The position numbers and the translations under genes are program-made. From Escherichia coli (lineage in GTDB: Bacteria; Pseudomonadota; Gammaproteobacteria; Enterobacterales; Enterobacteriaceae): 64,000 nucleotides of DNA. Under the pieces are notes generated by a model, which was not told the origin of the DNA, ran no database searches, and saw only the letters and a program-made list of their open reading frames with translations. The stretch is from NCBI RefSeq assembly GCF_017348835.2, contig NZ_CP071375.1; one strand, 5' to 3'. Shown piece after piece: positions 31,399 to 31,805 of the stretch (position 1 is the stretch's first letter; each line of letters begins with the position of its first letter).

Positions 31399-31480
31399 CC
31401 GAGGTAAAGTCTCCCCAAACCAAATTTCCACGCGCTATCGAAACGCCACTCCATTAGCTGCAATTTGAGCAAGCAAAGGG

Positions 31481-31508
31481 TTAGAGTGTCTCGTTTTTGT
31501 AAAGTTCC
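31481..31508 (-). promoter_or_regulatory. Sigma-E-dependent rpoE P2 promoter
   Basis: Reverse strand GGAACTT-N16-TCTAA matches the sigma-E consensus. Confidence 0.7.
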
Positions 31509-31782
31509 GTAACGCATCTGTTTTTGTTTGTCATGCTGTAGACGGATCATTATCTATCATTATAAGTCTACAGAATCTGAACATCGCATTATCTGTGTAG
31601 AAATGCCCATTTAACTGCCTGAAGAGTAACCCAACGGCCTTTTTATTTCACCACCTAATCCTCCACCAGCCAGTAACTTCTCTTTTTCTCGCCGCCCTGC
31701 GTCAGCGTGTTTAGCCACTGTAACAAATATTAAAATAGCAGGTGTTTATTCGCACAACATGATGCTATGCTGACCAAACCGT

Positions 31783-31800
31783 GTTTAGTAAATTAAACAA
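31783..31800 (+). promoter_or_regulatory. NadR operator upstream of nadB
   Basis: TGTTTA-N6-TAAACA palindrome ending 5 nt before the nadB ATG. Confidence 0.65.
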
Positions 31801-31805
31801 AGAAA

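Follow-up and report, generated by a model that had tools for sequence, protein, structure and literature searches.

The promoter through which rpoE of Escherichia coli is autoregulated, originally called P2 and now P6, is recognised by sigma-E polymerase (PMC6358824, PMC1312014). The consensus for such promoters consists of GGAACTT, a 16-nt spacer, TCAAA and a discriminator of 5 or 6 nt (PMC1312014). Six rpoE starts have been mapped, at -381 (P1), -327 (P2 and P3), -218 (P4), -153 (P5) and -75 (P6) (PMC6358824, PMC8103513); P2 is RpoN-dependent (PMC6358824, PMC8103513), P4 is RpoS-dependent (PMC5736990, PMC8103513), and an RcsB motif has been reported upstream of P3 (PMC6358824). For the neighbouring gene nadB the regulator is NadR, whose operator consensus is an 18-bp palindrome and whose DNA-binding domain is restricted to enterobacteria (PMC2330245). 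Gel-shift and ChIP-qPCR experiments have shown NadR at the nadB promoter of Salmonella, where deletion of nadR raises nadB mRNA 8- to 10-fold (PMC12421817). What is said below of sigma-E dependence, of mapped rpoE starts and of binding and repression by NadR comes from this literature on K-12 and Salmonella.

The DNA analysed here is a 64-kb stretch of an E. coli chromosome (the window), in which the RefSeq annotation gives the gene order lepA-rseCBA-rpoE-rseD, divergent from nadB-trmN-srmB. An earlier note on this DNA had described about 400 bp between the divergent rpoE and nadB genes and had read two regulatory motifs in them, a sigma-E promoter and a NadR palindrome. The length was right, the gap measuring 407 bp (31399-31805), but not all of it is non-coding, as 152 bp belong to the annotated leader ORF rseD, which had been overlooked and within which the sigma-E promoter lies. 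Many E. coli chromosomes match the 1.2 kb around the gap without a single difference, and the region was found in 5425 of 5426 complete E. coli genomes, with at least 99% identity in 5334. The gap of K-12 MG1655 is equally long; its three differences, at 31716, 31750 and 31781, spare the sigma-E motif and the half-sites of both NAD boxes considered below. Given the equal length and the absence of changes in either motif, published K-12 coordinates carry over directly, and the mapped rpoE starts fall at 31779 (P1), 31725 (P2/P3), 31616 (P4), 31551 (P5) and 31473 (P6). The gap is almost certainly the well-characterised divergent rpoE/nadB control region, with its sigma-E promoter and NadR operator. 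The features behind both motifs are already known in E. coli, and as first stated the reading holds nothing new to biology. Elsewhere in the window, on the strand opposite rseC and the start of lepA, Rfam matched AsrC, an antisense RNA of rseC described in Salmonella Typhi (513 bits, 28389-29220, plus strand).

Features of the rpoE-nadB gap and its borders (positions in the window; identity is the mean against the E. coli base in an alignment of 21 sequences)
Feature	Position	Strand	Basis and remarks
rpoE	30823-31398	minus	ATG at 31398
rseD, 51-codon rpoE leader peptide ORF	31395..31550	minus	ORF list; RefSeq 'rpoE leader peptide RseD'
Whole rpoE-nadB gap	31399-31805		identity 0.615
Shine-Dalgarno-like GGGGAG of rpoE	31411..31416	minus	12 nt from AUG; invariant in the alignment
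GCTTGCTC, first bases of P6 transcript	31467..31474	minus	identity 0.98; complementary to rpoE nt 3-10 GAGCGAGC (31389-31396)
Sigma-E-dependent transcript start	31473..31475	minus	published -75 is 31473; 5/6-nt discriminator rule predicts 31474-31475
Sigma-E -10 element TCTAA	31481..31485	minus	exact match; identity 0.91
Sigma-E 16-nt spacer	between -35 and -10	minus	identity 0.48
Sigma-E -35 element GGAACTT	31502..31508	minus	exact match, 7/7; identity 0.95
TATAAT, putative -10 hexamer of rpoE P5	31559..31564	minus	conserved block AGACTTATAATGA, identity 0.865
GTGAAA-N17-TACTCT, putative elements of rpoE P4	31623..31651	minus	-35 identity 0.90, -10 identity 0.98
O2, imperfect NAD-box-like site TGTTTAGCCACTGTAACA	31708..31725	none	two mismatches to consensus; putative NadR site
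Putative sigma-54 -24/-12 elements of rpoE P2	31738..31751	minus	K-12 has cGGataaacaccTGCt; assigned from spacing
Putative extended -10 of nadB promoter, TGcTATGCT	31763..31771	plus	identity 0.87; predicted start near 31778
O1, NadR operator (NAD box)	31782..31799	none	perfect unique match; identity 0.98, best 18-nt window in the gap
nadB start codon	31806..31808	plus	ORF list and annotation; ATG conserved in aligned genera

For comparison we collected one genome per species with RpoE, which gave 80 gammaproteobacterial loci, and nadB is divergent from rpoE in 68 of them. The gap itself was aligned across 21 Enterobacteriaceae/Erwiniaceae sequences, with identity measured against the E. coli base, and the chance expectation of each motif was taken from 100 shuffles of the 64-kb window.

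The sigma-E motif GGAACTTTACAAAAACGAGACACTCTAA (GGAACTT-N16-TCTAA, 31508..31481 on the minus strand) is the sole match in the 64 kb; the shuffles yielded a mean of 0.01 matches, with a match of any kind in only one of the 100. Its spacer has exactly the preferred length of 16 nt, and its -10 element fits TCAAA at four of five bases, the mismatched third position being one that varies in other genera, where TCTAA, TCCAA, TCAAA and TCATA occur at the same place. When masks of the same shape were moved across the gap, only 3 of 379 scored as high in conservation. A relaxed pattern, nGAAC[TC][TAC]-N15-17-[TC]CnnA, precedes rpoE at comparable spacing in 66 of the 80 loci, including those of Vibrio, Pasteurellaceae, Aeromonas and Alteromonadales, as compared with about two loci expected by chance from arithmetic on the pattern. 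The motif is the autoregulated promoter P6, with its mapped start at -75 (PMC6358824, PMC8103513). That start falls 7-8 nt downstream of TCTAA, 1-2 nt beyond the usual 5/6-nt discriminator, and is for this reason compatible with the motif. The earlier reading of a promoter for rpoE autoregulation, which was to be checked against mapped starts, is thus upheld by an exact, unique and conserved match at the published P6. Degradation of RseA under envelope stress frees sigma-E, which then drives the operon it is encoded in, rpoE-rseABC, with transcription starting some 75 nt before the ATG; the result is a positive feedback in which the anti-sigma factor is induced as well.

Given that the motif sits inside the annotated rseD ORF, it could be supposed that it is conserved as codons of the RseD leader peptide (...Y-G-T-L...T-L-T...) and not as a promoter. 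However, an intact ATG-initiated ORF of about 51 codons, beginning at about -152 to -161, was found only in Escherichia and Citrobacter among loci L002-L040 (Enterobacterales plus a few Vibrio/Enterovibrio), and the motif persists where the frame is broken. In the other genera of that set the frame either contains stops or lacks an ATG, so that coding conservation of rseD beyond Escherichia/Citrobacter is not supported and the conservation of the region is not protein-coding. Moreover, two conserved blocks around a variable 16-nt spacer make the pattern of a promoter and not of codons. We therefore rejected coding constraint on rseD as the cause of the conservation, and consider it very improbable; the motif is read as the sigma-E promoter.

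On the nadB side, TGTTTAGTAAATTAAACA (TGTTTA-N6-TAAACA, 31782-31799) is the only perfect match to the NadR palindrome in the window, and none of the 100 shuffles contained one. This NAD box, here called O1, starts at -24 relative to the nadB ATG and occurs in all 20 Enterobacteriaceae/Erwiniaceae loci but not in any of the 34 others, a taxonomic spread that agrees with that published for the NadR DNA-binding domain (PMC2330245). The nadR gene itself is not within the 64-kb window. A NadR palindrome upstream of nadB, as had been claimed, is borne out by the perfect and unique match, by its identity with the published consensus and by the published binding of NadR at nadB; one detail needs correction, since six bases (31800-31805, AAGAAA) and not five separate the box from the ATG.

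It might still be held that both motifs are functionless chance matches in AT-rich intergenic DNA, as looser versions are not rare: GAACTT-N15-17-TCNAA is expected 0.47 times per window, and a NAD box with up to two mismatches 2.4 times. The exact motifs, however, are expected only 0.01 (sigma-E) and 0.00 (NAD box) times; both are conserved far above their flanks across genera, return at the same position in dozens of taxa, and agree with mapped starts and published binding data. The conservation and the chance statistics refute this explanation, whose probability we put at practically nil. Both motifs are present, each only once in the window, and have changed far less than the sequence around them; they represent two textbook regulatory sites readable straight from the sequence that survive both a chance test and a conservation test.

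No usable mapped nadB start was found in the supplementary tables or literature searched, and we infer the nadB -10 element, the start point and the mode of repression from the alignment. The candidate extended -10 has T, A and T invariant at hexamer positions 1, 2 and 6, the E. coli SNP in it hits only the 'n' of TGn, and it lies a constant 10-12 nt before the NAD box throughout the alignment. An alternative, a leaderless nadB mRNA driven by a -10 inside the box (TAAATT), was considered and rejected; the conserved TGnTAnnnT, which precedes the box by 10 nt, is preferred because it has the classic invariant positions and a layout like that of nadA and pncB, the K-12 boxes of which likewise lie just downstream of a -10 hexamer. 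Seen from rpoE P3, the bases of the putative nadB -10 are some 40-46 bp upstream, where the RcsB motif has been reported, and their conservation may therefore have a second cause. With the start as predicted, O1 would span about +5 to +22 of the nadB transcript, directly downstream of the extended -10. Thus, when NAD is plentiful and the NadR repressor occupies TGTTTA-N6-TAAACA, bound NadR would be expected to block polymerase binding or escape at nadB, and de novo NAD synthesis would be shut off.

The 6-nt spacer of O1 has an identity of 0.94, nearly the level of the half-sites, which hints at an extra constraint on the same bases, all the more as the six A-rich nucleotides between box and ATG have an identity of only 0.33. 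The distance from box to ATG is 1-7 nt in all genera aligned, with no canonical Shine-Dalgarno sequence, and because only these few poorly conserved, A-rich nucleotides follow the box, initiation of nadB translation looks Shine-Dalgarno-independent or weak. One explanation, which would add to the NadR reading and not replace it, is that the O1 18-mer also serves as the core of rpoE P1, whose published start (-381, 31779) places O1 at -3 to -20, or as the whole of a short, A/U-rich nadB leader that must recruit ribosomes where there is no room for a canonical Shine-Dalgarno sequence. On the other hand, P1 has been described as minor, the box offers no convincing -10 hexamer, and NadR binding alone could constrain the spacer, given that the NadR site of Proteus has a similar one, TGTTTAGTATACTAAACA (PMC2330245). 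We regard a second role for these bases as doubtful, though worth keeping in mind, and take O1 primarily as the NadR operator.

Beyond P6, the gap contains five further mapped rpoE promoters, P1-P5, that the earlier note had missed. Other conserved blocks of the alignment fit several of these starts, and the elements that we would assign to them are candidates. The TATAAT hexamer that fits P5 ends 7 nt before the P5 start, which in turn lies 1 nt before the rseD ATG, so that the P5 transcript would be nearly leaderless for rseD. At P4 the candidate -10 hexamer likewise ends 7 nt before the mapped start, and its TAnnCT is invariant. For the RpoN-dependent P2, cGGataaacaccTGCt of K-12 fits a sigma-54 pair, -24 GG / -12 GC, with suitable spacing to the start. 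In the window strain the SNP at 31750 makes this GG a GA, and the GG is missing in five of seven sampled E. coli haplotypes; the exact K-12 61-mer at P2 occurs in 1032 of 5411 genomes, and that of the window in 2772. The sigma-54 promoter P2 may accordingly be a lineage-specific feature within E. coli, as far as these haplotypes indicate. A TTGCA that is conserved in several genera was also tried as the -12 element and rejected, as no suitably spaced GG accompanies it and the bases are the right half of the second NAD-box-like site, O2, on the other strand. A scan of 31300-31900 for sigma-70 promoters and terminators returned nothing; it is uninformative for this region because the documented sigma-70 and RpoS promoters have poor -35 elements.

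The small RNA gene glmY lies in the same window, 19 kb from rpoE P2/P3 (Rfam, 147 bits, 12556-12703, minus strand). Its promoter is used by RpoN and by RpoD, with QseF, at one shared start, and the same has been reported for rpoE P2/P3 (PMC6358824). Rfam at gathering thresholds found no family within the gap. Its other matches in the window were a complete rRNA operon with spacer tRNA (47282-52294, minus), the rncO leader (25391-25605, minus), the Phe leader (60176-60301, plus), RyfD (55292-55430, minus) and the ohsC antitoxin RNA (21902-21978, plus).

The right edge of O2 coincides with the published P2/P3 start (-327, 31725). Each of the 16 Enterobacteriaceae has a counterpart of O2 at 73-74 bp from O1, with a left half, nGTTTAG, that matches a NadR half-site, and in two Pantoea loci the site lies at 52-53 bp instead; these distances are close to seven and five helical turns, respectively. 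Mismatches to the NAD box number two in E. coli and one to four in other genera, and among E. coli haplotypes the half-sites are invariant while the spacer varies. The fixed spacing, the conserved left half and the invariant half-sites would fit a second NadR site. It is equally reasonable, however, to propose that O2 is conserved as the initial transcribed region or as a regulator site of rpoE P2/P3, and not by NadR binding: the P2/P3 start maps to its very edge, its right half-site is poor in most genera, leaving two to four mismatches in total, and the nadA and pncB promoters of K-12 have no second box within three mismatches. We give this latter explanation an even chance.

If O2 is nevertheless a NadR site, NadR might also act on rpoE, since O1 and O2 sit on the start regions of distal rpoE promoters. 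NadR-NAD bound at both could then form a DNA loop in which nadB and the distal rpoE promoters are repressed jointly, coupling NAD status to basal sigma-E expression. This proposal, drawn from the arrangement of the sites, we consider unlikely; were the phased second box functional, it would tie NAD metabolism to the envelope stress response in a new way.

The rseD TGA overlaps the rpoE ATG (ATGA). Transcripts made from the sigma-E promoter begin within rseD and so do not allow translation of the whole ORF. In the rpoE leader, CsrA is bound at both the Shine-Dalgarno sequence and the start codon (PMC7652899), and a distant Shine-Dalgarno sequence with a U-rich bulged stem has been published for rpoE as a member of the polyamine modulon. 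In the computed fold, GGGGAG and the AUG share a U-rich hairpin. The first eight bases of the P6 transcript, GCUUGCUC, pair with rpoE nt 3-10 in the minimum-free-energy fold. No other segment of the gap pairs as well with the start region of rpoE: the -17 kcal/mol obtained, which only 2 of 5000 shuffles reach, compare with -12 for the next independent site; the fold of the whole P6 leader is not significant (z = -0.83). Both partners are invariant across the alignment, and covariation therefore cannot test the pairing. On the basis of these computed folds, GCUUGCUC could base-pair across codons 1-4 of rpoE, and the start codon might thereby be masked on the sigma-E-dependent transcript specifically.

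Taken as a whole, the 407 bp accommodate on shared bases no fewer than seven promoters, two repressor sites, the second of them putative, and a leader ORF confined to a few lineages. Readings of such gaps that stop at two motifs therefore understate them.

Set against the described systems, the rpoE promoter of the window is identical in sequence to P6 of E. coli K-12, with the same -35 element, 16-nt spacer and -10 element and a start about 75 nt upstream of the ATG, and there is no difference in the promoter itself. Wider afield, the rpoE loci of Vibrio, Aeromonas and Shewanella resemble the E. coli locus in having nadB divergent from rpoE and a sigma-E-type promoter upstream; in loci L033-L081 (Vibrio, Aeromonas, Shewanella-related and Alteromonadales) the divergent arrangement and a GAACTT-N16-TCnnA promoter persist. 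Loci outside Enterobacteriaceae/Erwiniaceae differ in having no NAD box, in a shorter gap of about 150-320 bp, and in clade-specific variants of the -10 element (TCACA, TCTGA and TCATA, versus TCTAA in E. coli). In Pseudomonas, algU (algT) and nadB are likewise divergently arranged.

The overlap of the rseD stop with the rpoE start codon (ATGA) resembles that of translationally coupled leader ORFs such as idlP-iraD, but unlike leader ORFs of this type rseD is not conserved beyond Escherichia and Citrobacter. The NAD box of nadB, finally, shares its palindrome and, if the putative nadB -10 is right, its placement just downstream of a -10 hexamer with the boxes of nadA-pnuC and pncB in K-12. Those of nadA and pncB have one mismatch each, so that only the nadB box is perfect, and nadB alone among these genes has a conserved, helically phased putative second site upstream.
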